64,000 nt of DNA from Kiritimatiellia bacterium (GTDB taxonomy: Bacteria > Verrucomicrobiota > Kiritimatiellia > CAIQIC01 > Lenti-01), in the NCBI GenBank assembly GCA_017540905.1, contig JAFYAC010000097.1, positions 8,383-72,382 of the forward strand, given 5' to 3'. Below the pieces are notes generated by a model. That model did not search any database and had not been told where the DNA came from. It saw nothing but the letters and a program-made list of their open reading frames with translations. Below are positions 36,647-55,181 of this stretch, in pieces. A program made the translations under genes and the position numbers. Position 1 is the stretch's first letter; the number at the start of each line of letters is the position of its first letter.

Positions 36647-38221
36647 GTCGATTATGCAAAAGCCCGCTTGTCCGCGCGGGGCATCAAGAGGGGGTGGACG
36701 GTGGGGGGGGAGGAGTTCAGATGGCGGGCAGGAACACGGACAAGCGAGGGGGGAACAGCCAGGCAACAAGGGACAAAAAGAGGCGTTTGAGCCCCTTCAG
36801 AAGCTTGCGGAGGTTGTAGCCCATGGCCGTCAGCAGGGCGTGGAGGGCATCGCCCGCCGCCCCGGCCAGCCGGCAACGGCCTTCGCGGCTGTGGTCCTCG
36901 CGGACGTGGCCGATGACCGGCTCGATGGCGTTGCGGCGCTTCCACCAGTGCAACAGGTTCCGGTTGCGGGTCTTCCGGAAGCGGTTCACGACCTGGATGT
37001 CGCACGGTCCTTCGTAGCCGCTCTTGCGGTAGCCGAGATCGACGCACGCTTGGCGGGGGACCACGCCGCCGATCCGTTCCGCCTGTTCCAGCGCCGGCTG
37101 CAGGGTGTGGCCGTCGTAGGGGTTGCCCGGAAAGGTCTTCGCACCGAGGATCCAGCAGCCGCGGGCGCTCGTCACCAGTCCCGCCTTGACCCCGAACTCG
37201 TAGCGTTTGTGCGACTTGCCCTTGGCGATGCATTCCGTCTTGGGTTCGTGCAGCGAGTAGAGGCGTTCGCGCCCCGGGGTGGTGGCATCCTGCTCCAGCA
37301 GGCGCTTTGCCAGGGCGATGTCCTCCTGCACGCGCATCCACGTGGCCGTCTCCCACGGGGTCTTGGGAATGAAGTTGCTCGCCTCCAGCTCCGCGACCAC
37401 CTTCCGCAGGTAGCCCTTCAGGGTGGCCACGCCCCGCCGGAGGCGCTTGAATTGCCGCGCCTTGGCGTACCCGGAGCATTTCCGGCACATCTGCTTGCCC
37501 TTCCGGCGCCAGTTGCGTTTGAGCCGGATGTGCAAGCGCCCGGCGTCCTTGACGAGGCGTTCGCGGGCGCGGTCGAGCAGTCCCGCGTCGGTGGGATGCC
37601 GGACGTACTTCTCCTGGACGTGCGTGTCGACGTTGACCCGCTCGAAGTCCGTGCTCTTGGCGAGCTTGTTGCGTCGGGCGCACCGGAGCGTCTCGCGGAG
37701 CATTTCCTCGGCGCCGCTTTCGCCGAGTTTGGCGCGCCAGCGGCTGAGGGTGGGCTGGGTGGTGGGCGGACGGTGTTCGAAGAAGATTTCCCCGCAGAAG
37801 TACTGCCAATACGGGTTTTCGACCCAGCCGTCGAGGACTTCCTGGTCGCTCAAGCCGAACATGTAGCGGAGCATGGTCAGGCCGGTGAGCATCCGTACCG
37901 GGCACGAGGGGCGGCCATTGTCGGCAGAGTAGGAGCCTTTGAGGGCCTTCTCGAACTGGCCCCAGTCGATGGCGTCGGCGAGCCGGACGAGTTCGTGCTG
38001 GTGGTCGACCAGGTCGGTGAGCATGATTTTTCCGAACAGGGTCTGGACAGGCTGGCCGGCGGTGCTTTTGGTCATCATTTTTCAGGGGTCTCCGGGGAAT
38101 TTGCGTGGTTTTGTTGGAGGAATCCTATCAAAACCGCGCCCGGAAACGCAAGAGTAAATAATGTATATTTTATTGCACAACAATTGGTTGAGACGAATTA
38201 ATTAAGCAGTGTATGATCGAC
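36647..38221 (-). mobile_element. IS5-family insertion sequence, 1575 bp
   Basis: Termini are GTCGAT...ATCGAC (about 10 of 12 terminal bases inverted-repeat). It is flanked by the direct repeat TCTTTC (36641-36646 and 38222-38227). Removing the element plus one TCTTTC restores the repeat seen intact at 468-510. Confidence 0.85.
36717..38078 (-). CDS. IS5-family DDE transposase
   Basis: 453 aa. It has the N-terminal InsH-type domain (GRPSCPVRMLTGLTMLRYMFGLSDQ) and a DDE_Tnp_1 C-terminus (YDGH...NAIEPVIGHVRE). Confidence 0.9.
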   Translation of the reverse strand: MMTKSTAGQPVQTLFGKIMLTDLVDHQHELVRLADAIDWGQFEKALKGSYSADNGRPSCPVRMLTGLTMLRYMFGLSDQEVLDGWVENPYWQYFCGEIFFEHRPPTTQPTLSRWRAKLGESGAEEMLRETLRCARRNKLAKSTDFERVNVDTHVQEKYVRHPTDAGLLDRARERLVKDAGRLHIRLKRNWRRKGKQMCRKCSGYAKARQFKRLRRGVATLKGYLRKVVAELEASNFIPKTPWETATWMRVQEDIALAKRLLEQDATTPGRERLYSLHEPKTECIAKGKSHKRYEFGVKAGLVTSARGCWILGAKTFPGNPYDGHTLQPALEQAERIGGVVPRQACVDLGYRKSGYEGPCDIQVVNRFRKTRNRNLLHWWKRRNAIEPVIGHVREDHSREGRCRLAGAAGDALHALLTAMGYNLRKLLKGLKRLFLSLVAWLFPPRLSVFLPAI

Positions 38222-38328
38222 TCTTTCAAGGTGCGCCGCCCAACCGGGCGGCGACTGGGAGTGCGGGCGGCCCGCCCGCTTGTCCTTCACCTCCCCGCCC
38301 GCAGGGCCCACCGCATCTCCTCACTCGG
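38222..38328. repeat. Right half of the IS-interrupted repeat plus a REP-like unit
   Basis: TCTTTCAAGGTGCGCCGCCCAACCGGGCGGCG continues the repeat broken at 36646. It is followed by GGGCGGCCCGCCC and CCCGCAGGGCCCACCGCATCTCCTCACTCGG. Confidence 0.7.
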
Positions 38329-38363
38329 CACTTCCGATGGTGCACACAATCCGCTAGCTCTTC

Positions 38364-38395
38364 GGCAAATCACAAGTTTCCAATGTCTTGGAAAC
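38364..38395 (-). terminator. Rho-independent terminator closing the island operon
   Basis: The minus strand reads GTTTCCAA-GACA-TTGGAAAC followed by TTGTGATTT, about 45 nt after the 38438 stop. Confidence 0.7.
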
Positions 38396-38437
38396 ATGCC
38401 CCCCAGTCCTCAACACAAAATCCCGTCCATTCACACA

Positions 38438-38776
38438 CTACGTGTCCAACTGGGCCAAATCAAAAACATCCATATGCTTTTCAACATATTGCAGACCAGC
38501 TTCAGTAATTTTGACAAGTGGAACCCCAGATTTATTCGTAGTCATTTCCCAAAACCACTGGCAATTCAGATAATCATCAGGATAGTGCACCAACAGTTCT
38601 GAGGTTGGAAGTGGAGCCACCTCCCCTATAGGCACTGTGCTTGTGCCTGGCCCTCCAGCTTTTCTCTGCATCGCAATCCGTGCTAATGCCTTCGCAGCTA
38701 TAGGTCTCATACCTAGTGTCTGTTCTCCCAACGCACGAAACGCCGTTTCAAATTCTTTCCAGGCCTGTGTTATCAT
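38438..38776 (-). CDS. Hypothetical 112-aa protein, last gene of the island operon
   Basis: AGGAGG lies 10 nt upstream of the ATG. It has the low-GC codon usage of its neighbours. I recognise no motif. Confidence 0.65.
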   Translation of the reverse strand: MITQAWKEFETAFRALGEQTLGMRPIAAKALARIAMQRKAGGPGTSTVPIGEVAPLPTSELLVHYPDDYLNCQWFWEMTTNKSGVPLVKITEAGLQYVEKHMDVFDLAQLDT

Positions 38777-38875
38777 AGTGCTTTTTCCTCCTAACAGTAT
38801 TCGAGCAATCTATTTTCAATTTCACATTGGCAAACGCATTACTGTTCGCCCAAGCTTCCAACGCTCCTGCTTCTC

Positions 38876-40615
38876 TCACTCCACGACATACAACTCCCAC
38901 TTTGCTCGGCTAAGGCCGACGTATTTCAGTTCGTCATCCACCTTCTTCTCGTCGATGCCGAACAAAAACACGATGTCGGCATCAAGGCCCTTGAAACCTT
39001 GAACCGTGGTTTTCAGAATCCCGGTCCCCTTCTCCCATGCGGGGATGCTCTCCCAAGCGTTGGGACCGCCAACAAAGCGGACTAGATGCCCTTGGCCATC
39101 CTTCCAATTCTGATAGGTCATTATCAGATCCCATTTGGAAGTCAAAAACACAATCTGATTCATGCCGGCATGTTCTAGCACTTCGGAGAGTTTTTGGCGG
39201 ACCTCCTGGGTTGTGATGCGCTGGACGGGCAATGGGCGGGTCTCCATCGTGGCTTCATTCCAATAGGGAACAATCGTCTGGTTGTCCTCGTACTCTTGCA
39301 TGACTCCGTGGATAGTGGCGGCGTTGCGATAATTGATGTCCAGCCTCAACTCGGCAACTTCTTGCCCCGGGAACAACGCCCGCTCGTCATAATTCCAGCC
39401 CCTCTTGTTCTCATAGGAAAAGATGGTTTGCTCTGCATCCGAGAACAACACGATCTTCCGCTGTTCCTGCAAGCATGAAAGCAGGATGGATAATTCCCGC
39501 TGCGATAAATCCTGCGCCTCATCCACAAGCAATACGTCAAACCGACCGTATTGGCTAGCCAGATTGGGGAGAATTTCCTCCAGATGGTCATCCCAGGCCA
39601 CGCGGTTGTTGTGGTAATAGGCATACTCGGATTCCCGCCCGAACTTGGTTTGAATGCGGTCGAAATTGGTGATGGCCAAATGATTCCGCCCCGGAAAAGT
39701 CCCAATCTTGCGGTCCAGTTTTTCGGCCAAAGCGCGGTTGAAGCACACATACAGGACATCTTTGCCCAGTTGTGCGTATCGTTTGGCCAAAGCGATTGCG
39801 ATGATGCTCTTGCCTGTCCCGGCCGCTCCCTTGACATGGCAACAGTCGTTGCACAACAAACGCTGAAACACAATCTGTTGCGGTTGCGTCAGCATCTGTT
39901 CGGAAATCTGATCCCATTTCAGGAACTGCATGTTGATTGCCGCAGGAGTCTCGAACCTGCTCAATTTTTGTACAACCTGGCTCCTGTAGTTTCCAGTGAA
40001 ATACACTGGATTGCTTGGAGAATACTTCAGTCTTTTCGTCAGAATATGCTCTTCTAGTTGTCGTGCAAACGCAATAGAGGTTTCCTTGTTCGCATAGGCG
40101 CCAAACAAGGAAAAAGCTGCCCCGCGTTCTGTATCGCGTGCCACAATCGGAGTGAGGGCAAAAAGAATCAAATAGGAGTAGCTGCCCCACCGCTCTCCAT
40201 CGGATATTTCCGACAACATGTATCTATTGATGTCTTTAGACGCACTGCTGGCCTTCCCGTAAATGTCAACAGCCTTGGCACCTCTTCCCTGAACCTCATT
40301 TTGAGCCCCCCCTTTTTGGGGATCGCCCAACCATATTTTTCCATCGTATTCGAAGTAATTCCCCCCTTTGGCATCTATGTTGATAATACCCACGTTTGGG
40401 ATGACCACCAAAAAATCAAGCTGGTGTTCCGGTAAGTTGACATCATCGAAATGGGCATCGTAAAACACATCCCAATCACTAGGCATGTAATCCCGAAAGA
40501 ATTTGTAGACGGCCTGTTCACCGGCCCATCCCGGCTTTTTGTCTGGTCCCTTGGAAGGAATCAGATTCTCCAATTCGATGTCGGTTGCGCAATAAGGATG
40601 CATTCTGCTGCTCAT
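38876..40615 (-). CDS. NERD-domain nuclease fused to an SF1 (UvrD/AAA_19-like) helicase
   Basis: 579 aa. The N-terminus GEQAVYKFF..(32 aa)..EHQLDFLVVIPNVGIINIDAKGG fits the NERD pattern. Helicase motifs are GAAGTGKS (Walker A), LLVDEAQDL, and C-terminal VGLSRAKWELYVV. The start codon overlaps the upstream stop (ATGA at 40612-40615). Confidence 0.85.
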   Translation of the reverse strand: MSSRMHPYCATDIELENLIPSKGPDKKPGWAGEQAVYKFFRDYMPSDWDVFYDAHFDDVNLPEHQLDFLVVIPNVGIINIDAKGGNYFEYDGKIWLGDPQKGGAQNEVQGRGAKAVDIYGKASSASKDINRYMLSEISDGERWGSYSYLILFALTPIVARDTERGAAFSLFGAYANKETSIAFARQLEEHILTKRLKYSPSNPVYFTGNYRSQVVQKLSRFETPAAINMQFLKWDQISEQMLTQPQQIVFQRLLCNDCCHVKGAAGTGKSIIAIALAKRYAQLGKDVLYVCFNRALAEKLDRKIGTFPGRNHLAITNFDRIQTKFGRESEYAYYHNNRVAWDDHLEEILPNLASQYGRFDVLLVDEAQDLSQRELSILLSCLQEQRKIVLFSDAEQTIFSYENKRGWNYDERALFPGQEVAELRLDINYRNAATIHGVMQEYEDNQTIVPYWNEATMETRPLPVQRITTQEVRQKLSEVLEHAGMNQIVFLTSKWDLIMTYQNWKDGQGHLVRFVGGPNAWESIPAWEKGTGILKTTVQGFKGLDADIVFLFGIDEKKVDDELKYVGLSRAKWELYVVE

Positions 40616-43600
40616 TTCCGTCTCCTGGCTTTTTCTTTTGCAACGACCTGTGAGCGAAGAGCACCATGCTTAGCCTCGCTCCAGCGGGCAATCTCTGTTC
40701 CATCGGCCAACCAATATCGGAAGCCCTCCACCGGCCTCCACCCTGGCTGGCTGGAATCGACAGGTTCTTTTTCGATTTCTTCATTCTGGAGCTCTTCCGC
40801 CTCCCGCAATGTGTTGATAACGGTTGTCGGTAAATGCCCGCCTCCGCCCAGCAACTTCTCCAATACCTTCAGGCCGTCAAACCGGTCGAGCTTCCCATGC
40901 TCTCTTTGGTTGTCGAAGGTTCGCAAGCACTCCCGGCATGAAGCCACATGTCTTTGGTCTGAGTTCACCTTTACTGTATCCACAGGTTCCCGAGAGGGAT
41001 TGACGCCCTCCTCTCCGCACCTGCATCCGCGCAACAATGCCAAGGCGGCATCGACAATCGCTCGGATGCGGGCAGACCATTGACGGCCATCCTCATCACG
41101 TACACTCGGCAGCAAATCCAGCACACACCCGCTTCCGCCCCCTGTGTCCGCGTCGAAAAACACGAACCAGAAACTTTCCTGCCCTTGGTTTTGATATGCT
41201 TGCAAGAGGCACCCCACATCCCGCTCGTTGACCTTCAAGGTCTTGGCAATCCCCCTCCTCAACGCATACATGGCGGACAAATGCGCGTTTGAAATGCGTT
41301 GCGGACTCCAATTGGGAAATTCAGCGGTCGATGCCCAGAATCCCGGAATCCAGATTGCAACGTTCGTCGGCGATTCATAGAGGTAGAACAATCCGCCAAA
41401 CCCGTGGAAGTCGCTCCCGGGGTTCACGTAATGGATGGCCCGTTCGGACGGCTCGCAAATGGAGAACCCCAGCCCCGGGACTGGATGGCGGCCCTCCTGA
41501 GGAATGTCCCCCGACCATGACACCAAACGCTGTCCGCGCGGTTCAAAGTCAGTGGGGGGATTGGTAGTGCTCGAATCGGCCAGGAACAGCTCGGGCCATG
41601 CAAATCCATGGGGTGTCAGTGCTCCTTGGCAGCACGGACAACGGCCACCACTGGGCTTCTGCAAGAACACTTTCTTGCACGTCCCGCAATATGGCAATGG
41701 TGTTCCCTGCGCATCCGCCGTTCTTGCCGCATCTCCGGGGCGGAACATGTAAACTTTCGCAGCGCGCGACCGGAACCGCAACTTGTTTGCGTACACGCTC
41801 TGCCCCGGCGCATACTCGAAAATGCCAAGGTGGGCTGGCCGGGCCAATTTGACTCCGTGGGCCTGCTGGTCATCCTTGTCGGGTTTCAGCTCCAGGGTAT
41901 CCACCGGGAATCCGTAGCGTGGCAGAACGCACGCTTCGCTGAGTGCGTCGATGGTTTGTACTTCAAGCAGTTTTCGCTGGGAAAGCGAGAGCGGCATACC
42001 GTCTCGAAGTTGTCCGTTCGTATCCGTTATGGGCTGGTTCACCGCATCGCTCCGGGTGCTGCCGTCAGCCAGCAGGTTGATTTTCCATTCCAGACGTTCT
42101 TTCAGGCAGTGCCAGCGTTTCCACTGGTTTTCTTGCAATTGGTTTTTTCCCACGACTTCGGGCATGTGGCATCCGCCTAGATCACGGCAAAATTCGTACC
42201 CTTCCCGGCCGTGCAAATGCGGGAATCCTTCCAACCCAATCACCTGGAAAACCACATCATCGACTGCGGAATAGCTTCCCCCCGTGATGTTCGCGAGAAA
42301 GTCCGCACTGTAACCACGCACTCCCGCGATGACGTATTCCACGATGTCCTTGCGCTCCGTCGCCCACCTCCCCAACCAATCACAGCATGTTGCGGAAATG
42401 CTCCGCGCAACAGCCTGTCCCTGCTCGTTCCTCCCCGCCTGCCAGCCAACCAAGAAATGCGACACCTTCTTCCATTTTCTTGCCGCCTCCTTTTCAGCTT
42501 GGTCATCCGAATTTCTCTTTTGCGCGATGAATTGTAGGAAGTCATGCAATGCCTCTGCACGGAAGTGCCGGGCCGCAAACTGTGGCCGCTCCAAATACAA
42601 CCGTGGTGGTTCGATCTCCCCGAAGAAGAGCATCTGGGGATTCTTGAAACACTCGCTGTCATAGAACGACTGGCTCCCGCACAACGTCAGGATGTATGGT
42701 TCCGCCCCTGGCCGGCGCCCCGCACGCCCTGCACGTTGCCGGTAGTTTGCCACTTGAGGAGGCATGTTTCCGAGAAACACGTTGTTCAGGCTTCCCACGT
42801 CGATTCCCATCTCGAATGTTGTCGAGCAGGACAGGATGTTGATCTGGCCTGATGAAAACTCCCGTTGGAATATCGCCCCCAACCTCGAATCAATCTGCGC
42901 GGTGTGCTCTTGGATCACGAAGGGTATCGTCCCCGAGAGTTGCACGCCCTGTTCTCCGATTTCAACTATCAGGTCTTCGCAAAGGGAGGAAGAATCCGCA
43001 CCTTGTTGTCCATCGGTTTGTCCAAAACGGAAAACATACCCGTCCCCAAGTTCTACAAGGATACCCGTTCCATCAGTGAAGAGGGAGAAAATGCTCTGCC
43101 GAAGGTTCCCCTCAGCCGTCTCGTGGTCGCCCAAGCCACAACTGTTCAGACATCTGTGCACCATCCCGCTGAGCCGGTGATTGGCTCGCGTATTTGTGGG
43201 GGCGATGTCGCTCCGCATCACCTTTTTCGGTTCGTAACGATAGAACCAGGATTGCAAGTCTCGGTCCTCGTCTTGTCTTACTTCTGCGCCAAAGAAAATC
43301 TTTCCCTTTTGTAAGAGGTAGCCATAAATCTCTTGCAGAAGGGATTTCATTGCCTCGTCGGGAACCCCGTCAAATGGAGGTTGGAACAAGTCATCGTAGT
43401 ACGTATTTTCTCTCGTCAGCTCATCAAGGATTTTCGACTTGATTCGAATACGTTTGCTCGGGAGCAGCCCGACACGACGGTTTCCTGCCAATAATGCCTT
43501 CAGCACAAGGAACTTCGCGGCAAGCAATTTGTCCAGCAACACGTGTTGGCTGGAACCAGTGCCTTGTCTATTCCGCGTCTGCCTCCCCGTATTGAAAGGT

Positions 43601-46557
43601 TGTTGCTCCCCGCGCTCCAAGGAGAGAATCCGCTCGGCATGGGCCTCCCTCGCCAACTCCTCCAGAGCATTTCCACGTTCCAAGGTCTGCACAAGGTCTT
43701 GGACGGCAGGCAGGCGATAGCCTCCAAACCCTGACGACTTTCCTTGTTGGAGTGCCGCGATTATCCCAATCAATTCCTGGGTGATTCTGATTTTCTGTCC
43801 ATTAAGAATGGCCACCTCGTATGGGGCCGTGTTGAACCCCTTGCAGAGTTTTACCACCAAATCGTCGCAATACTCCGCTTGGATGGTTCGATCGAAATCG
43901 AACGCAAGCCCCGCAGCCCCCCCACGGCTGTCGGCAAAAGCAAGCACCTTTCTCCCCTCGCCTGGGGACTGCCGCCTGATTTCGGGATCTTGTTCTGGCG
44001 GGGCGACATGGGCAAATGCCTCCAGTGCCTTGATTTTGAACTGGGTTCCCGTCGCTTCGTAAGGAGTGATGATGCCGTATCGGGCGGTTGCTCCCGCCCC
44101 ACCTCCGCAGGCCGTGCAATGTGGCAGGAAGTTCTCTTGTTTCTCCTTGTGAGGAATCATCCAGTAGATTGTCGTTCCGCCATTGTGGGGGGCAACGCTC
44201 CCGTCAATCAGATTGATTTGCAAGTTCTGGATGGCTTTCTCGGCATCGCCATCTTCATCCCGTTCCGCCCCGCCGAGAGTGAAAGCGTGGAGATGGGTGA
44301 ATCTCCCGATTGGATTCCGGACAAACTGGAAATTATGATGCATGTCATGCTCGGACTGCTTCAGCCCGTTGGTATAACCCAAAAGGTACGGTTGCCCGCA
44401 CCTCCGGCACACTCCCAGCGTATAAATCTGTTCGCCCGTCTCGGCTTTTTCCGCCTCGCTGTGGACAAAATGTGGGCGGGTTGCATCTCCCCCCTCGAAA
44501 TACACACCTACCCCGGAAATATCACGCATCACCTGATGGAAGCGAACGTCAATTAATGGCCGACGTTCGCCGTGGGCCACGGCCAAGCCCCCGAGGGATA
44601 CGAGACGGGCCAAGTGTGGCGGCCCCTTCAGACCTGCTGCTTGTGCCAACTGGCTCAAAGGCAGGTGGTCGCCAGCATGGGCGAAAAAGCGGGCTACATC
44701 ACCACGCCCAGCCATCGCGTTGTAAATCAATTCGTGGTAGTTGTCCCCACTCACCCCTGGCAATGCGGCCTGCCACGCTTCGTTCAGTTCCTTTTCCTCC
44801 TGGTCGAGCTCCACCCCTCGTTCGGCATGTCGGCGTATTGTCTCGCTCCACTCGTTCAAGACGTCCCCGGCAACGTGAATCGCGATGCTTTGAAGATTTC
44901 GGGGTCCATCACTCTCCATTCGGATTTCAGGTTCGAGCAAGGTTTCAATGGCCCGGTAGAGGTAATCCAAGGTTTCCCTGTGTATGCTTTGCAGGGTTCG
45001 CCCATCCGCCAAGGCTTTCCACACATCCATCAGGCTCAACCGGTTGCCCCTCGCGTTGCCGCCGTCGTTCGCTTTCTCGCTTCCGCGCCCATCCAACTCA
45101 TCGTGGAGGACGTCCCGATAATCGCGAAAGTCCGTCGAATAGGTCCGCATCAATCGGCACAGCCAGCGAACTTCTTCCGTCACGAGAATTTGCTTCCCCT
45201 CGACAGGCTGTCCATTCACCCACACCTCTGGATGCCGTTGTCCCCAGAAAGCATCGTCCAACCCAACGATTTCCCCAAGCGAGGCTGCGCCTCCGGCATC
45301 GATGATGCGTTGCAACACGGTCAGGCTTTGCTTCTGGCTTTGATGCTCGCGCCGTTTCGCTTCGTATTCGATGGTCCGGGAATACAGACTTGCGGGTTTT
45401 CCCTCCTTGTTTTCGTCTTCCTGAAATTCTGGCCGGAGGAAGAAATCAGGCTCGGCATCCACAACCGTTTCATCCCTGGCCGCGATTTCCTCGATTTGAC
45501 CCGAAGTGATGTAGAAGGATTCAGCTTCGGCCGGAAACAAGGAAGATGCAAACTCTCGGATTTTCCTGTCCGCGTCCTCTCCGGTCGAAAGCGTGGCGGA
45601 TGTCGCCAAGAACCGTATTTCGTGATCATCTCTCCGCAAACGGTTTTCCAGGCGCCGGAGCAACCAGGCAATCTCCGTCCCTGCGGTTCCCGTATAGGAG
45701 TGGGCCTCATCCAACACGATGAAATCCCAGGGGTCGTCAAACATCCGCGAATCCGGCAACAGCAACAACCTCTCCAGCATCGCGTAGTTCGTCACCAGAA
45801 TGTCCGCCCCGCCTCCTTTCCATTGTGAGCGGTAGCGGAACTCGGTTGGCAGGAAATCCCCATCGAAGGCCCTCTCTTCATCCAACGTCGCCGGACAACC
45901 ATCTCCACCCTCCATGAAGCTGCCCCACAAGCGCTGGAATTCGTCTTTGTCTTTGAGCGTCTCTTCCTTGTAATCCGTTTCGCTCGTATAACGTCCGAAC
46001 GTCACCGCCCCGCACCCCGTCGGCAAATACCGAATCAGCTTGCGCAAACGTCGGAGCTGGTCATTCACCAATGCGTTCATCGGATAGAGAATCAGGGCAC
46101 GGACATGCTTGTGGTAGGCACTCCCCTCTTTCTTCCGTTCCTTCACGATGGCATTGATAATGGGCAACAGGAAGCATTCCGTTTTGCCGCTACCCGTTCC
46201 GGTGCTCACCACCAGATTCTCCCCGGCGGCGACATGCCGGAGCGATTCCAGCTGGTGTGCGTACAGTCGGACCTGCGCAGGGTCCGCATTTGGGTCATCC
46301 AACAGATACCGTGCAAACGCAGTTGCGACTTCCGGCTCCAAATCGCCGCTATCCTTCAAATCGGCCAATGTTTCGCGGGCAGCCCTGTATGCCGTGGCCA
46401 ACTCAAGATAGGGCTCCTTGATGAAATCCAGTTCTTCGCGCTGGAATCGGCCAAACGCCTCCGCAATCGACGGTTTTGCCGCCTTCACGGGCATTGCCCG
46501 GTCAAGATACGTCAAGAGACGGTCTTTGATTTGCTGGGTCGAGGTTTCGATTTTCAT
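40612..46557 (-). CDS. Giant SF2 DEAH helicase with a Cys-rich DUF1998-type C-terminal domain (DruE-like)
   Basis: 1981 aa. Motifs are STGTGSGKT (about 46180-46206), DEAH (45700-45711), SAT, and helicase-C ILSCSTTFEMGIDVG..YRQRAGRAGRR. The C-terminus has CGTCKK..CPCCQG and CRCGEEG..CRECL clusters. The start overlaps the upstream stop (ATGA at 46554-46557). Confidence 0.85.
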   Translation of the reverse strand: MKIETSTQQIKDRLLTYLDRAMPVKAAKPSIAEAFGRFQREELDFIKEPYLELATAYRAARETLADLKDSGDLEPEVATAFARYLLDDPNADPAQVRLYAHQLESLRHVAAGENLVVSTGTGSGKTECFLLPIINAIVKERKKEGSAYHKHVRALILYPMNALVNDQLRRLRKLIRYLPTGCGAVTFGRYTSETDYKEETLKDKDEFQRLWGSFMEGGDGCPATLDEERAFDGDFLPTEFRYRSQWKGGGADILVTNYAMLERLLLLPDSRMFDDPWDFIVLDEAHSYTGTAGTEIAWLLRRLENRLRRDDHEIRFLATSATLSTGEDADRKIREFASSLFPAEAESFYITSGQIEEIAARDETVVDAEPDFFLRPEFQEDENKEGKPASLYSRTIEYEAKRREHQSQKQSLTVLQRIIDAGGAASLGEIVGLDDAFWGQRHPEVWVNGQPVEGKQILVTEEVRWLCRLMRTYSTDFRDYRDVLHDELDGRGSEKANDGGNARGNRLSLMDVWKALADGRTLQSIHRETLDYLYRAIETLLEPEIRMESDGPRNLQSIAIHVAGDVLNEWSETIRRHAERGVELDQEEKELNEAWQAALPGVSGDNYHELIYNAMAGRGDVARFFAHAGDHLPLSQLAQAAGLKGPPHLARLVSLGGLAVAHGERRPLIDVRFHQVMRDISGVGVYFEGGDATRPHFVHSEAEKAETGEQIYTLGVCRRCGQPYLLGYTNGLKQSEHDMHHNFQFVRNPIGRFTHLHAFTLGGAERDEDGDAEKAIQNLQINLIDGSVAPHNGGTTIYWMIPHKEKQENFLPHCTACGGGAGATARYGIITPYEATGTQFKIKALEAFAHVAPPEQDPEIRRQSPGEGRKVLAFADSRGGAAGLAFDFDRTIQAEYCDDLVVKLCKGFNTAPYEVAILNGQKIRITQELIGIIAALQQGKSSGFGGYRLPAVQDLVQTLERGNALEELAREAHAERILSLERGEQQPFNTGRQTRNRQGTGSSQHVLLDKLLAAKFLVLKALLAGNRRVGLLPSKRIRIKSKILDELTRENTYYDDLFQPPFDGVPDEAMKSLLQEIYGYLLQKGKIFFGAEVRQDEDRDLQSWFYRYEPKKVMRSDIAPTNTRANHRLSGMVHRCLNSCGLGDHETAEGNLRQSIFSLFTDGTGILVELGDGYVFRFGQTDGQQGADSSSLCEDLIVEIGEQGVQLSGTIPFVIQEHTAQIDSRLGAIFQREFSSGQINILSCSTTFEMGIDVGSLNNVFLGNMPPQVANYRQRAGRAGRRPGAEPYILTLCGSQSFYDSECFKNPQMLFFGEIEPPRLYLERPQFAARHFRAEALHDFLQFIAQKRNSDDQAEKEAARKWKKVSHFLVGWQAGRNEQGQAVARSISATCCDWLGRWATERKDIVEYVIAGVRGYSADFLANITGGSYSAVDDVVFQVIGLEGFPHLHGREGYEFCRDLGGCHMPEVVGKNQLQENQWKRWHCLKERLEWKINLLADGSTRSDAVNQPITDTNGQLRDGMPLSLSQRKLLEVQTIDALSEACVLPRYGFPVDTLELKPDKDDQQAHGVKLARPAHLGIFEYAPGQSVYANKLRFRSRAAKVYMFRPGDAARTADAQGTPLPYCGTCKKVFLQKPSGGRCPCCQGALTPHGFAWPELFLADSSTTNPPTDFEPRGQRLVSWSGDIPQEGRHPVPGLGFSICEPSERAIHYVNPGSDFHGFGGLFYLYESPTNVAIWIPGFWASTAEFPNWSPQRISNAHLSAMYALRRGIAKTLKVNERDVGCLLQAYQNQGQESFWFVFFDADTGGGSGCVLDLLPSVRDEDGRQWSARIRAIVDAALALLRGCRCGEEGVNPSREPVDTVKVNSDQRHVASCRECLRTFDNQREHGKLDRFDGLKVLEKLLGGGGHLPTTVINTLREAEELQNEEIEKEPVDSSQPGWRPVEGFRYWLADGTEIARWSEAKHGALRSQVVAKEKARRRK

Positions 46558-49500
46558 CTTACTTCACTCATGTTGTTTGAGCTTGAGTCATGGGTTCTTT
46601 TGCACATCCAGCAACAGGCGCCAAATTCCCGGCGCAAGTCCCTATGCTGCACAACTGTCTCGAAAAGGTGTTCCAGAATCAACCCGCTTTGCCCGGTCAA
46701 GCGGAGGGTGGGATGCAGAAAGCGCAGATACCGGACCGCCGCCAGGCAAAAGACCCATTCCGTGTCAGTTGTCCACTTAGCCACCATCCGCTGCATCCGG
46801 TTGGAAGCCGACCAGAGTTCAAGTTGGGCCAAGAATGCCTCTTTGAGTTGTATGAGCGGACTGTTTTCGATTGCAACAGAAGACAGAATTGACGACGGCG
46901 ATGGGCAAGGGCCTTGCAGGAGACGGCCCACCTCGCCGTGCAATGTCGCCGCATTCATGCACCTCAACTGATCGTCGTTGGCCTGAAAAACCTTTTCACC
47001 GGCAAAAATCTCCTTGTCCATCATCCGGTTCTTTATTTGCGGCAATCTCAAGCACATTTCACAAACACCGGCATAAGATTTGAATCTGGTCTGCAAATCA
47101 GGTGTGTCCTGAAACCTGGCAACAATCTGTCTCAATAGTTGCATGGTTTCGACGGATGGACTCGCACCATGCGCCCGGGCACATACCATTGCCGCCAAAC
47201 AGAATACCCATTCCCGGTCAGAGGGCACTCCATACGGTACCTTCGGACTCCTGCCGTTGGTAGCCTGCGACATCGTTTCCAACAAGTCTGCCAACAGCTC
47301 GAATCCCGGATGATTGCCAGAATCAAGGGATTGCCGTAACAATTCGATGGGGGTGGGGTGCGTGTTGTCGGGGAAGACAAGGGGCTTCTCGCCTTGTTCC
47401 AAAGTGAGTTCACGGACACTGATGTTGTTGTCCAAATGCTCATCATGTACTATCCGCCTCACCAGATCCTGGTAGTGGCAATCTTCAAGATTTCGCGTTC
47501 CCGGGAGTGCCCATCGCAGGAAAATCCCCAATCGTTCCCCAGACTCTATCACCTTGAAATATGCCGCCCTGTGATTCTCCAACAGCGTGCGGACATCCTT
47601 TCTGATCCTGTCCCGACGCCCTCTGTAGCCGAGCCCCCGCAAGCGGGCATCAAATTGTTCCTCCCTTTGATTGGCATCCGCATCCCACCACCAACGGACA
47701 AATTCCAGCCAATAAAAGAGTTCCACGGAACGCTCTTGTATTGCCGGTGGCAAAGGTGGAAACCGCAAAAAACCATCCTTGACCATCTCCTGCAATCCCC
47801 ACGCCACGCCTTCCAAAACCGGTTGGAAACCACTGGCCAACCATGTCCTGAAGAGCTCCATCCATGAGGAAACTTGCGTACAAACCTGGGTTTGGCACAA
47901 GGATTCAACAGTATTTTTCCACCCGGCGCGTATTTCTTCTGATGTGGCCGTTTGGGGAGTGGTGAAAATGTGCATTCTCCGAACGGGGTGTTCCGTGGCA
48001 GTCAACTGGAAGCCCACGGCTTTCAGTGTTGGCAGGACAGGCATCATTTCGGCGGGATAAATCGGAACGGCACTCTGTGAATCCTGGCGGAGAAGGCAAC
48101 ATGCAGGATCACAACCCAAGGCAGCATAGAAAAGTTGAGTCACACCTTCCATGTGGGGGAACGCAGATAGGACGGCGTCATATCCGTTCGTGCGTTTGCA
48201 AAAGTCTTGCCATGCAGAATCAATATCAAGGAATCGAATCCCCGGGCGGGTTTCCCCCAGCTTTGTTCCCGTTAGCAACAAGTCGGGTGATTGGTCCGAA
48301 AAAACATATATCTCGTATATGCTCTGTTCGCTTTCAGGCACGTACAACCCAAGATGTCCTTTGAGATCCAGACAGAAGGTGGCGTTGCCGGGACCGCGTT
48401 GAAGGTAGCGGAAAAACGTAATGCCTTGGTGTTGCCATTCGCGGACTTCGGCATTGGGCGTGTATCGGTACCCTTTCCCCGCTTCGGTCAGTTTTCGCAA
48501 GTTGCCCCGCCAATACCCTTCTTCCGATAGATACCAAGTGCGGTTGTCCCCAGCCGGTGAACCACAGTGGGCGGGAAGGCACAGATACAAGTATTTCAGG
48601 GATTCATCGTCGATTGCAGGAGCATTGCCTTTTGTGAAAACGGATTGGCCCTTGAAGTCCTTCAATCCATTCTTTTCGTGGTAATTCTGCTGGCCGAGCT
48701 CAAACCACCAATATGGACTGTCACCGGCAATGGGTTCTCGTATGTCGAGAGGCGCATCGCCTTGGTGAACCAAATGGATTCTCCGTTTTCCGTCGATCCA
48801 GTCCGGGATGGCCGTGGGGGCTACCACCTCCGTGGCCGTCCAATTGGCTGGGCATGGCGACCCCGAAAGCAACCCTCGGCGGACCCCATCCGGCAACACA
48901 ATTCCCGAGACGGCCGCCCCTGTGGTGTCAGATTTGATCATACCCCCATCGTTATCGCGGCAGGAAATGCGAAGGTGATGCAATGTATGGTCTTTGAAAT
49001 CAACTTGCGGGAAGGCATCACGGAGCAACACGTTCAAATCGTTGCCGAGGCCGTTCCACACGGACTGGCCGTCCAAGGTAAAATTCCAGTTGTACCCCTG
49101 GTGCGGTCTGGCATTGTCCACACGCAATCGCAAAGCTTGTCCTGGAAACACCACGATTCGGTTGTCGGAAGGCAATGTTTCAACCTGATCGGGATTCCCT
49201 TCGATGCAGATGGTCGGAATTGCCCCGAGAATGGTGATGGTGCCAAATTCTTCACCCTTGTACAAAAACTTCAGCGGGACATCTTCATTGGGAGGGCGCC
49301 GGGTGATACGGTAAACTCGTATCGGATGGTTCTCAACCTCACCGTCGTCTTGTCTGCCTTCAAAACGCTGTTGTAATTCCTCGTGGACAACTGCCATTTC
49401 CAATGCGGGATTGTCGCAACACCAGCCAAGGTCTTGCAAGCTGCCCTCGTCCCGGGCACAAATCAGGATGTCATGTTGGTTCCGTTTCAGTTCGGGGGGC

Positions 49501-50504
49501 GTGTTGTCGGGGTTCCACCACTTGTCGGCCTCGCGCCACCAATTGCGCCGCCGAATGTCCGTAATCCGATGCCGGAGGAAAACACCAAAGGGAATATCCC
49601 GGCGTGGAAACAATACGCTGTCTTTTCTGTTCCTTGGGTCTTCCTTCTCCTGGCTGTTGCAAGTTCCCCAACGATGCTTGCAATACTTGACTTCCACTTC
49701 GTGTTTCAGTGGCACGGGGGCAAACCAGGCGTAATCGTTTTCAATTTTCTGCCCCTTGATTCCATCGACCTCAAAACTCCGCCACTCTTGATTGGTTTGC
49801 TTGCTCGGGAAGCAATCAAATCCAACACCGAATTGGGCCACACCGTCATCAGGCAGACGCAAATACCAGTCCACCCATGCCTCAGCCCCCACACGATAGA
49901 GACAGGCATCGTGGATGGCTTCCCAAGATGGCTCGGTTGAGTGCCCACGCAAGTCTTCAGGCACTTCTCCGGTTGCCAGCCATTCCACCAGCTGGGAAAA
50001 CTCCCTTCGTTCGATTGTGTCTGTTGCCATCAAAAGACGTATCCAGGAAGACTCCTTGGCGTCTTCACCCTCCACACGGATTTCTCCATCTGCCAGAAAA
50101 CTGTGCTTGGCCTTGCGGATGCAATTCCAAATCTTTGAATGGAAACCTGTTTCTTCCGTGCGGGTATCCAAACACCAACATTTTGAGAGAAAAGAAGTCC
50201 TGTCGCAGGGCAGATAATCATGTCCCATTCGCTTCAAGGCATCACCCCAGATGTCCTGGGGGCGTTTCCCGGCTGGGAATCGTTCTGGCCAACTGCACTT
50301 GGAAAAGTCCCAACCATCCGATTTGTTGAAGAAATCAACAAACCAGACAGCCAGGCGGGCCACCGGAATGCAATCGAAATGGGGATAATCTTTGATGGCT
50401 CTGCAAGTATCTTCGTCCAATTCGAGCGCGATACGGAACAGTGACGCCCCTTGCTTAAGGCGGCTCATTATTTCAGTGTTCTTTTGGAAGACATCAATGG
50501 CCAT
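46554..50504 (-). CDS. Hypothetical 1316-aa protein, first gene of the island operon (DruH-like by position and size only)
   Basis: Uninterrupted low-GC ORF starting MAIDVFQKN. I saw no Walker, nuclease or other catalytic motif. The C-terminus has a duplicated about 54-aa module, EWVFCLAA...CxxC. Confidence 0.75.
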   Translation of the reverse strand: MAIDVFQKNTEIMSRLKQGASLFRIALELDEDTCRAIKDYPHFDCIPVARLAVWFVDFFNKSDGWDFSKCSWPERFPAGKRPQDIWGDALKRMGHDYLPCDRTSFLSKCWCLDTRTEETGFHSKIWNCIRKAKHSFLADGEIRVEGEDAKESSWIRLLMATDTIERREFSQLVEWLATGEVPEDLRGHSTEPSWEAIHDACLYRVGAEAWVDWYLRLPDDGVAQFGVGFDCFPSKQTNQEWRSFEVDGIKGQKIENDYAWFAPVPLKHEVEVKYCKHRWGTCNSQEKEDPRNRKDSVLFPRRDIPFGVFLRHRITDIRRRNWWREADKWWNPDNTPPELKRNQHDILICARDEGSLQDLGWCCDNPALEMAVVHEELQQRFEGRQDDGEVENHPIRVYRITRRPPNEDVPLKFLYKGEEFGTITILGAIPTICIEGNPDQVETLPSDNRIVVFPGQALRLRVDNARPHQGYNWNFTLDGQSVWNGLGNDLNVLLRDAFPQVDFKDHTLHHLRISCRDNDGGMIKSDTTGAAVSGIVLPDGVRRGLLSGSPCPANWTATEVVAPTAIPDWIDGKRRIHLVHQGDAPLDIREPIAGDSPYWWFELGQQNYHEKNGLKDFKGQSVFTKGNAPAIDDESLKYLYLCLPAHCGSPAGDNRTWYLSEEGYWRGNLRKLTEAGKGYRYTPNAEVREWQHQGITFFRYLQRGPGNATFCLDLKGHLGLYVPESEQSIYEIYVFSDQSPDLLLTGTKLGETRPGIRFLDIDSAWQDFCKRTNGYDAVLSAFPHMEGVTQLFYAALGCDPACCLLRQDSQSAVPIYPAEMMPVLPTLKAVGFQLTATEHPVRRMHIFTTPQTATSEEIRAGWKNTVESLCQTQVCTQVSSWMELFRTWLASGFQPVLEGVAWGLQEMVKDGFLRFPPLPPAIQERSVELFYWLEFVRWWWDADANQREEQFDARLRGLGYRGRRDRIRKDVRTLLENHRAAYFKVIESGERLGIFLRWALPGTRNLEDCHYQDLVRRIVHDEHLDNNISVRELTLEQGEKPLVFPDNTHPTPIELLRQSLDSGNHPGFELLADLLETMSQATNGRSPKVPYGVPSDREWVFCLAAMVCARAHGASPSVETMQLLRQIVARFQDTPDLQTRFKSYAGVCEMCLRLPQIKNRMMDKEIFAGEKVFQANDDQLRCMNAATLHGEVGRLLQGPCPSPSSILSSVAIENSPLIQLKEAFLAQLELWSASNRMQRMVAKWTTDTEWVFCLAAVRYLRFLHPTLRLTGQSGLILEHLFETVVQHRDLRREFGACCWMCKRTHDSSSNNMSEVR

Positions 50505-50790
50505 CGCTCATTTCTCTATTCGCATATACACCCTGTCACGAAAAGCGCGCGCCTCGTCCCCGCCTCTTTGAGAGGCCGTAGGAAGCCCATTGGCAGACGG
50601 GAAAGCGGGACGCGCGTGCGTGGAAGCGCACCAACGCGAAGCCGCCTGCCGATGAAGAAATTTCCTACGTTTCTCAAAGCAGCCACTTCTCATTCTTGCG
50701 TGAATCGGTAAGTTTTGGACGCCGCGGCCGGTCAACCGGAGACCGGGGTCTGGCGAGCACCCCCATGGATACCCCGTTGCCCGACCGTTT

Positions 50791-50959
50791 GGCGAGCCGA
50801 AACTGCGTCATCCGCGAAACCGATTTACCGCGCCCCGCGCGCCCGTTTTCCCGTACAAATCAACCCAGCATCAACCATCCTCTCGTTTCATCATTCGTTC
50901 CTTCCATCCTCTCCACTCGTCCCTCGCCCCCCGAATCTGACAACCGCCGCCCGGCAATC
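50791..50959. repeat. About 170-bp dispersed repeat, copy 1 (GGCGAGCCGAAACTGCGTCATCCGCGAAACCGATTTACCGCG...)
   Basis: Near-identical to 51288-51456 and 55013-55181 by eye. It ends in CCGAATCTGACAACCGCCGCCCGGCAATC. Confidence 0.8.
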
Positions 50960-51230
50960 CCCGAAAAAACAAACTCCGATTGGTCCGATGCCTGCGCCAA
51001 CGCTCCGGCTGACAGGAAAACAACTCGAAACAATTTGAAAACAACTCGGGACAAGGGGCCTTTCATCCTCATTGAAAAACGGGCACAAGAATGCCGAAAC
51101 ACCATTCTTGTGCCCGCCAACTGGCCCAAGGTGTTTTCTTTCTCTCTCTCCTTCTGCCTCCCTCCCGCCTTTCAATGTCCGCGAAGCGGTTTTCATGGTT
51201 TTCAATGTTGACCATCCTCCCGCACTCCAG

Positions 51231-51456
51231 CCGCCCGCAGGGCGCACCGCACTTCGTACTTCTTCCTTCTTCCTTCTTACTTTCTGCGGCGAGCCGAAAC
51301 TGCGTCATCCGCGAAACCGATTTACCGCGCCCCGCGCGCCCGCTTTCCCGTACAAATCAACCCACCATCCATCATCCTCCCGTTTCAGCATTCGTTCCTT
51401 CCATCCTCTCCACTCGTCCCCCGGCACCCGAATCTGACAACCGCCGCCCGGCAATC
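51231..51456. repeat. About 226-bp repeat unit (REP hairpin plus the 170-bp repeat), copy 2
   Basis: Collinear with 54956-55181, including the leader CCGCCCGCAGGGCGCACCGCACTTCGTACTTCTTCCTTCTTCC. Confidence 0.8.
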
Positions 51457-51775
51457 TCACGCAGAGCCGCAGAGAGGCAGAGGCGCAGAGGCTTGTCAGC
51501 ACAAAAAGGCAGAAAGGACATGTAGGAGGATCAAGACCCTTTCTTCTTCAACCCAACGTGCGCAGCGCCGTGATGGGTTGGTCTCGACCGACCCGTCACG
51601 GCGCTGCTCACACTTTGCAAGGAAAGGAAAAGAAAAGATGCATGTCCATCCTCCTTCTCCATGTACTTTTTGTCCTTTTGTGCTTTCTGTCGCCTCTCCG
51701 CGTCTCCGCGACTCCGCGTGAGCTTTTGTCTCCCCAAGCCCTCTGCGCCTCCGCCTCTCTGCGCCTCTGCGTGAG
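51456..51775. repeat. Large imperfect palindrome (37-bp-plus arms around a 17-bp-stem hairpin)
   Basis: Arm 51456-51492 (CTCACGCAGAGCCGCAGAGAGGCAGAGGCGCAGAGGC) is approximately the reverse complement of 51739-51775. The central hairpin GCAGCGCCGTGATGGGT...ACCCGTCACGGCGCTGC lies within 51558-51612. A related arm sequence is at 36534-36571. Confidence 0.65.
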
Positions 51776-51931: not shown

Positions 51932-52255
51932 TCAAGGCTGGGGCTGTTGGACCGGCACAACCTTCCAGACACCGTGGGCGCGGCCACCTTCCCGGACGAG
52001 GCGGCCGGAGATGGAAAGTTGTTTGATGTGGTCTGCAATCGCCCGCCGCGAGATGCCAATGCGTTTCGCCATCTGCTCCGTTGTCATGCCGCCATTTTCC
52101 GAAACAAGTTGAAGAATGGCCTCGTTGACGGGAGAGCTGGTTGTTTGTGAAGTTGTTTGTGAAGCTGTTTGTGAAGTTGTTTGTGAAGTTGTTTCCGGGT
52201 TGTGGCTTTCGACAAGGGGAATCGTCACCTTGAACTGGTCTTCTTCGTCCCGCCC
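51932..52255 (-). pseudogene. 3' remnant of an AlbA_2/HATPase_c_4-type (RecG-like) putative transcriptional regulator
   Basis: It encodes QFKVTIPL, a TTSQTTSQTASQTTSQTT low-complexity linker, and a wHTH (ILQLVSENGGMTTEQMAKRIGISRRAIADHIKQLSISGRLVREGGRAHGVWKV). This is the typical C-terminus of that family, but no N-terminal domains are present. Confidence 0.5.
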
Positions 52256-52579
52256 GCAGAGCGCTCCCCCTTTGTCCTGTTTGCCTTCTTTCCAAGAAGT
52301 TGTTTCCGTTTGTTTCCCAAGTTGTTGCGAGTTGTTTTTCCGTCCTGTTGTCCCGGGCAGTCCAAGTTGTCTCCCGGAACGTCCTCCCGCTTCCCAAGCC
52401 ACTCTGGAGCCGCCAATCGCAAACAACTCAAACAACTTGAAAAACAACTCGGGACAAGGGGCCTTTCATCCTCATCGAGAAACGGGCACAAGAATGGGAT
52501 TTCATGATTTCCGTGCCCGTATTTGGCCGCAAGACCCAAAGCGGTTTAAGAAATAATGTGGCCGCATTGGAAAGGGAGA

Positions 52580-52973
52580 CAAAACTCCGATTGGTCCGAT
52601 GCCTGCGCCAACGCTTCGGCTGACAGGAAAACAACCCGAAACAAATTGAAAGACAACTCGAAACAAATTGTCCTTCGGGCCTTCAATCGTCCCCGGATTT
52701 CTTGTCCCCGTTTGCAACCCAACGTGCCCGGCGACGGGCGCCCCATGTATGGGGCACCCGTCGCCGGACACACTTTGCGGACCAAAGAAAACAAATTTGT
52801 CCCTGTTTGTTTTCCTTTTAAAAATTGTTTTCAGTTGTTTTTCAAGTTGTCCCGAGTTGTTTTTGGGTTCTGGCTTCCGGCAAGGGGAATCGTCACCTTG
52901 AACTGGTCTTCTTCGTCCCGCCCGCAGGGGGCACCGCAAACTCGTCACTCGTCACTCGCAACTCGTCACTGCG
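52580..52973. repeat. About 400-bp composite repeat, copy B
   Basis: Collinear and highly similar to 55191-55597, with one indel of about 30 nt. It contains a 22-nt tandem (ACAAC(C/T)CGAAACAAATTGAAAG), a 22-bp-stem hairpin at 52724-52771, a GGGGAATCGTCACCTTGAACTGG gene-remnant segment and a terminal REP unit. Confidence 0.8.
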
Positions 52974-54093: not shown

Positions 54094-54197
54094 CTCGTGC
54101 TCCGCATCGTTTTGCCGTCGCAACCCTACCTTCTCCTCCCACCCCCCGCCAGCCCAAAATGCCTCCTGCCGCCCACCCTCTTTCCTCGCCTGTCGGT

Positions 54198-54292
54198 GCG
54201 TGGGCGGCCCGCCCCCCTCCTTCAATTCTCGGCCCGCAGGGCCCACTGCAAACTCGTCACTCGCAACTCGTCACTGCGCCCGCAGGGCGCTC
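54198..54292. repeat. REP-like hairpin array
   Basis: GGGCGGCCCGCCC ... GGCCCGCAGGGCC ... CAAACTCGTCACTCGCAACTCGTCACTGCGCCCGCAGGGCGC. Confidence 0.65.
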
Positions 54293-54862
54293 TCCAACGC
54301 CCTCCCCGGCGCCATGGCCCTCAACCGGCACGACCATGATGCCGTCCCGCAGGAACCGCTCGTTTCCCCGGTAGAGCAGCACGGGGGACGCCTCGGGATA
54401 ATCTTCCCGGAACGCCTTCAACCCCGCGAAGTCGCGCGGATGCAGCACAGCCGCGTTCTTGACCTCGATCGCGGCGAAATCCCGCTCGCCGTACACCACG
54501 AAATCGACCTCCACGCCCGCCTTGGTCCTCCAATACCCCAGCGTCGCCCGCCCCCCGGAGTAATCGTTCCAGACCCGCAGATGCTGGAACACGAGCCCCT
54601 CGAGCGCCGCGCCGCCGATTTCGGACGGCCGGTCGAGCGGCCCCTTCGGCCGCAACGCCCGGAACACGCCGGCATCGAAAAAGTAGAACTTTTCGTGCGC
54701 CACGAGTTCCCGCCTCGCGCGCTTGGCGAAAACGGGCAACCGCGCGGCCACCAGCAAATCCTCGAGAATTTTCAGGTAGCCGTCCACCGTCGTCCGCCCG
54801 ACCTGGCATTCGCGGGCGATGGCCGAAGACACGAGTTGCGCGCTCGACCTGTCAATCAAAAA
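54257..54862 (-). pseudogene. 5'-truncated DUF4143 ATPase gene (C-terminal half only)
   Basis: The residues from SAQLVSSAIARECQVGRTTVDGYLKILEDLLV onward parallel the C-terminal half of the 34648 ATPase family. There is no Walker A/B region. The upstream sequence is repeat DNA. Confidence 0.6.
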
Positions 54863-54955
54863 CCGCCATCGCAAATGGCAAATTTCCTTCCTTTCCGCCA
54901 ATTCGATCCCCTCTCCCGCTTTCCTATCCACGCCCCCCCTCCCCCTCTGCCCGCT

Positions 54956-55181
54956 CCGCCCGCAGGGCGCACCGCACTTCGTACTTCTTCCTTCTTCCTT
55001 GTTACTTTCTGCGGCGAGCCGAAACTGCGTCATCCGCGAAACCGATTTACCGCGCCCCGCGCGCCCGCTTTCCCGTACAAATCAACCCACCATCAACCAT
55101 CCTCTCGTTTCACCATTCGTTCCTTCCATCCTCTCCACTCGTCCCCCGGCACCCGAATCTGACAACCGCGGCCCGGCAATC
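54956..55181. repeat. About 226-bp repeat unit, copy 3
   Basis: Collinear with 51231-51456. The inner 170 bp (55013-55181) also matches 50791-50959. Confidence 0.8.

Follow-up and report, generated by a model that had tools for sequence, protein, structure and literature searches.

A probable three-gene variant of Druantia III with a nuclease-less DruE and a swappable NERD nuclease-helicase in a Kiritimatiellia genome

RESULTS

Four collinear genes on the minus strand

The sequence analyzed here, referred to below as the window, is a 64,000-nucleotide (nt) stretch of a Kiritimatiellia bacterium genome (assembly GCA_017540905.1, contig JAFYAC010000097.1, positions 8,383 to 72,382). Judged from its genes, an operon in a low-GC island of this Kiritimatiellae genome is probably an integrated antiphage or anti-mobile genetic element (MGE) operon of the Druantia family with a conserved three-gene core. 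Four open reading frames (ORFs) follow one another on the minus strand, all where an initial annotation made from the sequence had placed them. The first encodes a DruH-like partner of 1316 amino acids (aa) (46554..50504), the second DruE, a YprA-family superfamily 2 (SF2) helicase of 1981 aa (40612..46557), the third a NERD-superfamily 1 (SF1) helicase of 579 aa (38876..40615), and the fourth a protein of 112 aa (38438..38776). All four are ORF calls; the second and third are also backed by PADLOC and Pfam matches. Both ATGA stop/start overlaps described earlier (genes 1/2 and genes 2/3) are present, and the fourth gene does follow a 99-nt gap, with TAGGAGGAAAAAGCACT (AGGAGG) as the ribosome-binding site upstream of its ATG. 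The noncoding region upstream of the first gene yielded no sigma-70-like site on the minus strand. Public gene calls start the 1316-aa gene 12 codons later than 50504; the start at 50504 is backed by N-terminal conservation among homologs of the protein. The public annotation (NCBI proteins MBR4190382-93) names only "DEAD/DEAH box helicase," "AAA family ATPase," and "hypothetical" products.

A DruE helicase without a nuclease tail

The 1981-aa protein, taken in the initial annotation for a DruE with a DUF1998 module, is clearly a DruE by its profile matches. PADLOC returned DruE1 (5e-125), DruE3 (1e-116), DruE2 (2e-98), and DruE4 (6e-90), and the protein is about equally far from the DruE models of types I, II, III, and IV. 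Pfam matched DEAD (3e-22), Helicase_C, and MZB (6e-06; MZB/DUF1998). The Walker A motif GTGSGKT lies at aa 120-126 (within nt 46177-46200), the DEAH motif at aa 283-286 (nt 45700-45711), and MZB/DUF1998 at aa 1763-1878 (nt 40924-41271), and the zinc-binding Cys clusters are present. Relatives in the PDB are 9tu7, 9wae, and MrfA/YprA (6znp; E = 4e-19).

The end of MZB (aa 1869-1899) aligns to residues 1701-1732 of Escherichia coli DruE, and the tail beyond MZB is 82 aa in the window protein compared to 383 aa in the E. coli protein, where it consists of PLD domains. Pfam found no PLDc match in the window DruE, which carries neither a Vsr nor a PLD tail. Druantia III has been divided into subtypes III-A and III-B (Bell et al. 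2025, PMC12458937), both said to comprise DruH and DruE only, and the DruEs of III-B are described as being without the PLD nuclease tail (PMC12458937; 10.64898/2026.05.13.724758). Like the published III-B DruEs, the window DruE therefore has no cis nuclease module.

A NERD nuclease fused to an SF1 helicase

The identity proposed earlier for the 579-aa protein was borne out by Pfam matches to NERD (1.9e-07), AAA_19/AAA_30, and UvrD_C_2. PADLOC matched RTasNERD-Hel (1e-26), NERD+UvrD, AbiO (3.7e-14), and Nhi (1.3e-12), the last over profile positions 182-309 of 470 only, and gave weak, partial matches to GajB. The NERD domain, of the PD-(D/E)xK kind, occupies aa 29-106 (nt 40298-40531) with E33, D67, and D81-x-K83. 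It is followed by the SF1 Walker A motif GTGKS at aa 266-270 (within nt 39806-39829), Walker B DEAQD at aa 365-369, and an SRAK motif at aa 569-572. The E..D..(D/E)xK residues, Walker A/B, and SRAK are conserved across the clade defined below. Going by these profiles and motifs, the protein is a NERD nuclease fused to a UvrD-like SF1 helicase with its motifs intact. Its nearest solved relatives are HelD, SLFN11, PcrA, UvrD, and Rep. A bipolar, RecBCD-like pairing of a 3'-5' DruE with a 5'-3' SF1B helicase was considered and dropped because, with UvrD/PcrA/Rep/HelD and SLFN11 as relatives, the polarity of the enzyme is not inferable.

Conserved coupling of the NERD helicase to DruE

The window DruE belongs to a clade that is monophyletic and separate in a rough neighbor-joining tree. 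Nine loci of this clade keep downstream sequence: the window, L004-L008, L216, L217, and a contig of GCA_016648615.1, where the gene is split. In 9/9 of these the NERD-SF1 helicase follows DruE directly, with gaps of -4 to about +22 nt, so that it is a coupled neighbor rather than a chance one, as the initial annotation had assumed. Of the two downstream genes, only the helicase is a conserved neighbor of DruE in the clade; no other clade locus has a homolog of the 112-aa gene.

The same arrangement occurs outside the clade. Among 55 GTDB loci that keep their downstream context, 7 carry a triad of large partner, DruE-like protein, and NERD-SF1 helicase; these come from Clostridia, Collinsella, Bacilli, and Anaerovibrio. 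The triad was also found on two IMG/VR contigs (L174 and L212) and on three JGI metagenome contigs (L097, L140, with a DruE of 2111 aa, and L167); in a Chloroflexi GTDB locus the helicase lies upstream instead of downstream. The adjacency recurs patchily in several unrelated DruE clades. The DruE tail past MZB is at most ~150 aa, without the ~380-aa PLD module, in 7/7 GTDB triad loci and in both IMG/VR loci. These short tails fit a NERD nuclease that would stand in for the missing cis nuclease. No consistent C-terminal docking motif common to the NERD-coupled DruEs was found.

Other genes were seen at the same position. A D12-class Dam-like methyltransferase gene (15649-16620) comes after DruE in L011, a sister Kiritimatiellia locus, and a gene for a PLDc_2 protein of 656 aa (15812-17782) does so in L028; other trans partners therefore fill the slot of the NERD helicase. 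Two IMG/VR loci (L178 and L207) have a DruE-like protein of 2054-2121 aa, a NERD-helicase-like protein of 576-579 aa, and then a 342-352-aa protein, with several small or medium genes upstream in place of one large partner, an arrangement that fits no described class.

A DruH-like partner outside the reach of DruH profiles

The 1316-aa protein had been called domain-less, and no Pfam, NCBIfam, or PADLOC match was obtained for it, with PADLOC even at E <= 10. Members of its family were also negative with the PADLOC DruH models. As a positive control, E. coli DruH (from NZ_CP134663.1) matched 11 DruH3 models full-length. Comparison of the family with E. coli DruH by hhalign, using 9- and 26-sequence profiles, gave probabilities of 0.1-0.4%, and a PDB sequence search with the same profiles returned no DruH, with 9tud present in that file. 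Sequence homology to DruH thus found no support in any of these searches, and a full-length DruH alignment combined with unconserved downstream genes is not what the locus shows. However, the negative result with the DruH profiles is uninformative, because the same models miss 17 of 17 large upstream partners from other type-III-like loci of diverse phyla (drawn from GTDB loci L012-L078). These 17 partners form several mutually undetectable BLAST clusters. Among the partners missed by PADLOC 2.0 are six (L015, L017, L039, L042, L048, and L051) whose DruEs extend 335-390 aa past MZB, as long a tail as the PLD tail in E. coli.

The family of the 1316-aa protein is small. An exhaustive hidden Markov model (HMM) search of 1.84 billion representatives gave 54 matches, ~35 of them solid, and a word-indexed search with the family alignment gave only the same 5 proteins. 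A family member lies directly upstream of DruE in every locus of the window's DruE clade with context, and the pairwise divergence of the partner tracks that of DruE (Spearman 0.80, 15 pairs), as expected for interacting partners.

An AlphaFold2 (AF2) model of residues 1-1100, made from a shallow 5-sequence alignment, had a mean predicted local distance difference test score (pLDDT) of 58.6 and a predicted template modeling score (pTM) of 0.36, with a pLDDT of 70-87 over residues 300-790. It predicts an N-terminal helical domain (aa 1-205, nt 49890-50504), a beta-rich array of about six immunoglobulin (Ig)-like domains (~aa 210-805, nt 48090-49877), and the beginning of a C-terminal helical region (~aa 820-1316, modeled to aa 1100). 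Weak multi-stretch HMM matches at positions 436-550 likewise point to an Ig-like repeat. The best PDB matches in Foldseek were complement C3/C5 chains with six MG domains and Ig or fibronectin type III (FnIII) arrays, with template modeling (TM) scores of 0.07-0.33. The structural comparison suggested at the outset thus returned the Ig-like layout at low TM scores only. By cryo-electron microscopy, DruH has an N-helical/Ig-array/C-helical layout (10.64898/2026.05.12.722862; 10.64898/2026.05.13.724313), and the layout predicted for the partner agrees with it. The 1316-aa protein is DruH-like in its position, size, and co-evolution with DruE and, as modeled, in its layout, a likeness short of demonstrated homology. 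Of the earlier identification as DruH, what stands is position, size, and predicted layout; recognition by sequence does not.

The locus could also be a distinct defense type built around a DruE-like motor, with the 1316-aa protein an analogue rather than a homologue of DruH and the whole not a Druantia III. The absence of any DruH match by HMM, profile-profile, or PDB sequence search would fit such a type, as would the near-equal distance of the window DruE from the PADLOC models of all four types and the separate position of its monophyletic clade. On the other side, the HMM negativity loses its meaning where 17 of 17 other partners are missed as well, and the protein equals DruH in size, in position, and in its predicted layout of N-terminal helices, ~six Ig-like domains, and C-terminal helices. 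We consider a distinct type unlikely.

An exchangeable 3' cassette

The 112-aa protein had been counted as a component of the system. It has no family match in Pfam, NCBIfam, or PADLOC, and since no homolog exists in the other clade loci the core comprises three genes, not four. ORFs of ~100 aa occupy the same position in several clade loci and are unrelated in sequence; a conserved small fourth gene was rejected on this ground, as was an upstream gene of 75-84 aa. A single-sequence AF2 model of the 112-aa protein (pLDDT 52) was too poor for a fold search.

A different picture emerged from a Logan contig (L170/L172; SRR32285423, 10,988 nt), in which the 112-aa gene is 99% identical and the NERD helicase 84% identical to those of the window. 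Upstream of them stands a different DruE-like helicase of 1776 aa, alignable in the RecA core only. The partner that goes with it has at least 933 aa and matched none of the partner clusters in BLAST. In blastn, the contig and the window share 88.7% nucleotide identity from 14 nt before the NERD-helicase ATG to the contig end, that is, over a 3' module of NERD helicase, 112-aa gene, and downstream spacer (38238..40629, minus strand). The ATGA overlap is retained between the foreign DruE and the NERD helicase. Since the same 3' module stands behind an unrelated upstream pair, the NERD helicase and the local 112-aa gene behave as a 3' cassette that can be exchanged by recombination at the stop codon of DruE. 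The 112-aa gene is lineage specific and linked to the NERD helicase. The view of the NERD helicase as a co-evolving subunit of DruE fails here, as its tree is incongruent with that of DruE and it has been swapped onto another DruE. The upstream pair of the Logan contig falls outside all sampled partner clusters and DruE clades and is another unclassified Druantia-like pair. The contig ends at the equivalent of window position 38238, close to the end of the insertion sequence described below.

These data bear on the explanation that two independent systems lie side by side, a III-B-like pair (DruH-like protein and PLD-less DruE) and a stand-alone Nhi/AbiO-like NERD helicase with a small partner, since defense genes cluster. 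In PADLOC the helicase matches the single-gene systems Nhi (1e-12) and AbiO (4e-14); most of its distant relatives are without DruE, its divergence is incongruent with that of DruE, it and the 112-aa gene have moved together without the upstream pair, and two genes are said to suffice in III-B systems (10.64898/2026.05.13.724758). However, the Nhi and AbiO matches are confined to the helicase core, and the constant co-occurrence at such short gaps leaves no room for a separate promoter. The ATGA overlap was, moreover, re-created or retained on a foreign DruE, and the same adjacency recurs in several unrelated DruE clades. We regard two independent systems as the main rival explanation, itself somewhat unlikely.

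Comparison with known systems

The literature examined, which extends to mid-2026, describes Druantia I-IV, ARMADA, BRIGADE, and TALON. It contains no Druantia with a NERD-SF1 helicase, in agreement with the initial annotation. The window operon resembles Druantia III in having a large domain-less protein directly upstream of, and coupled to, a ~2000-aa YprA-family DruE with DEAH and MZB/DUF1998, and in the predicted layout of that protein; it resembles III-B in the absence of a PLD tail. It differs as follows. First, the partner matches no DruH profile. Second, the DruE lies about equally far from the DruE3 models and from those of DruE1/2/4. Third, the two-gene composition does not hold, given the NERD-SF1 helicase directly downstream throughout the clade. 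Finally, the tandem PLD-like domains at the C terminus of III-A DruE are absent. Unlike in Druantia I, II, and IV (the last defined with DruF/L in PMC8565338), PADLOC finds no DruA-D, DruM/F/G, or DruF/L among the non-DruE genes of the operon.

ARMADA type II consists of ArmA (BrxHII-like), ArmB (PglX-like), ArmC (YprA-like), and ArmD (a RelE-GajB-like helicase). Like the window operon, it places an effector-fused SF1 helicase, in its case with a predicted RNase toxin domain, after a YprA-family helicase, and the design principle is therefore less unprecedented than initially assumed. In contrast to ARMADA II, however, the window has no BrxHII-like or PglX-like gene and no Vsr nuclease on its YprA helicase, the N-terminal domain of its SF1 helicase is NERD (PD-(D/E)xK) rather than RelE, and its DruH-like partner is the sole gene upstream of DruE before the repeats. 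Eight IMG/VR loci (L185, L190, L191, L193, L200, L204, L205, and L214) encode proteins of ~940, 1591, 2107, and 700 aa, which fits ARMADA type II (ArmA-D); their contigs are classed as viral, in line with the carriage on MGEs described in the literature.

TALON combines an ARMADA-like YprA helicase with a NERD nuclease, TPR-CSD, and TBP. It shares with the window a YprA-family helicase served by a NERD-type PD-(D/E)xK nuclease in trans, whereas its NERD is separate and that of the window is fused to the SF1 helicase. Neither the operon nor its called neighbors contain TPR-CSD or TBP genes, the window helicase has no inactivated RNase H tail, and the host phylum is another. Finally, Nhi, AbiO, the PADLOC "NERD+UvrD" system, and the DRT-associated RTasNERD-Hel all join an N-terminal nuclease to an SF1 helicase, with matches to the window protein of 1e-26 to 1e-12. 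These matches cover mainly the helicase core and, whereas distant relatives often stand alone, in the window clade the gene never does and is always coupled to DruE. The locus is best grouped with Druantia III, as a variant with three genes, and is not categorically new.

The low-GC island and its flanks

The GC content is 50-59% from 38 to ~53 kb compared to ~65-75% in the flanks, and it is still below the flanks (52-66%) out to ~56 kb. The GC dip reported earlier is therefore real, but it does not end at 50.5 kb; the island is bigger than the four-gene block. The operon is horizontally acquired. The GC content falls moderately from a tRNA-Arg(CCT) gene (28368-28444, plus strand) to 38 kb and strongly over 38-56 kb, and znuABC (~55.8-58.4 kb) marks the island boundary. 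The tRNA gene may be the attachment site of a ~27-kb island with znuABC at its other flank; no integrase was identified in this putative island.

Directly downstream of the operon lies an IS5-family transposase gene (DDE_Tnp_1/DUF772; 36717-38078, minus strand), which has 40 near-identical copies in public data. Between it and the 112-aa gene, an 8-bp hairpin with 3 GC pairs stands at 38376..38395 on the minus strand. The hairpin of the terminator proposed earlier is thus present, but the weak, T-rich tail, TTGTGATTTG, makes a poor T-run. Terminator-like sites in the region numbered 18, compared to 17 expected from shuffles. With a poor tail and a site frequency at the shuffle level, the assignment as operon terminator is only plausible.

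Upstream of the 1316-aa gene are 2.4 kb of repeats, beginning with a noncoding region (50505..51500, strand not assigned), and then a Fic gene (52966-54246). A DUF4143 gene follows (54257-55033), with a second at ~34.7-35.7 kb; the IS5, Fic, and DUF4143 neighbors were all recovered at their coordinates. AbiEi and the AlbA_2 remnants, also listed initially, were not found in the window by tblastn with the L004 versions. A 171-aa ORF (51932-52447, minus strand; HTH_24, 4e-07) is a winged-helix helix-turn-helix protein in its last 50 residues and a low-complexity repeat in its N-terminal part. It is probably a gene remnant and possibly what had been named the AlbA_2 remnant.

The repeats (50734-51116, 51231-51456, 52571-52963, and 54956-55669) are copies of a dispersed composite direct repeat with a unit of ~650 nt and 77-97% identity, and they separate the operon, the winged-helix remnant, Fic, and the DUF4143 fragment. 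The same repeat occurs in L004 (9138-9711; 94% over 575 nt) directly upstream of a divergent system. It looks like a host-lineage repeat that flanks defense cassettes, and its sharing with L004 suggests that related hosts carry different alleles of the system in repeat-flanked slots.

This setting speaks to whether the locus could be a housekeeping DNA-repair module of the MrfA/YprA type, an idea that draws on the relation of DruE to MrfA/YprA. Such a module would not be expected in a low-GC island with a patchy distribution, flanked by IS5, Fic, and DUF4143, nor in related loci adjoined by AbiE and restriction-modification genes. In addition, the window protein scores as DruE and not as a YprA of MrfA length, and no MrfB-like exonuclease is present. 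A housekeeping role is very improbable.

DISCUSSION

The reading that we favor, as the one most likely to be correct, is that the core consists of a DruH-like protein, a nuclease-less DruE, and a swappable NERD-helicase effector, forming a three-gene variant of Druantia III. By analogy with characterized systems, the operon would have a defense function with a division of labor among physically interacting proteins. In this scheme, the DruH-like protein would recognize or process phage single-stranded DNA or forked replication intermediates and recruit or activate DruE, as suggested by DruH and III-A. DruE, loaded at the junction, would then use ATP to unwind the DNA, and the NERD-SF1 helicase would contribute the missing DNA-cleaving activity in trans together with a second motor, destroying the unwound invader DNA. 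A more specific formulation, which we put forward tentatively as a little short of an even chance, is that the locus represents a third compact Druantia architecture, provisionally termed "III + NERD-helicase." Here a DruE without a nuclease of its own would leave the destruction of DNA to a NERD-SF1 cassette, which would be exchangeable by recombination exactly at the stop codon of DruE.

Several points weigh against the three-gene variant as an interpretation. First, the partner has no detectable sequence similarity to DruH, even with the 26-sequence profile. Second, the AF2 model of the partner is of moderate confidence, its Foldseek TM scores are low, and the Foldseek library, with a cut-off of 8 April 2026, probably did not contain DruH 9tud. 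Third, the "missing nuclease" may not need replacing, because the PLD domains proved dispensable in one study of E. coli III-A. There are also many short-tail DruEs without a NERD helicase. Finally, the divergence of the NERD helicase does not track that of DruE (rho -0.19), and DruE is missing from the neighborhood of about two-thirds of its distant relatives for which 5 kb of context or more is available, so that the helicase may work alone.

The building blocks and the design principle of the three-gene variant are already known; the useful, testable part is the conserved trans nuclease-helicase and the cassette swap. The 2026 studies of Druantia III disagree on the source of DNA degradation, which is placed in the PLD domains of DruE, in a DruH exonuclease, or in no nuclease at all. 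A natural clade with a PLD-less DruE and a constant NERD nuclease-helicase in trans makes this question directly testable and predicts a new effector subunit, the NERD helicase. There is also a consequence for surveys. The PADLOC DruH models miss the partners of most type-III-like loci outside Proteobacteria, the type-III-like GTDB loci are probably missed or called incomplete by PADLOC 2.0, and Druantia-like systems are for this reason likely undercounted by such tools in those phyla. The Logan contig, for its part, illustrates cleanly how a module is swapped at the boundary between two genes and so how defense operons diversify. If the third-architecture formulation is true, Druantia III and ARMADA II would share a single design in two versions, in which a motor of the YprA family precedes an SF1 helicase fused to an effector, and sensor/motor pairs and effector cassettes would be shuffled independently within one host lineage.

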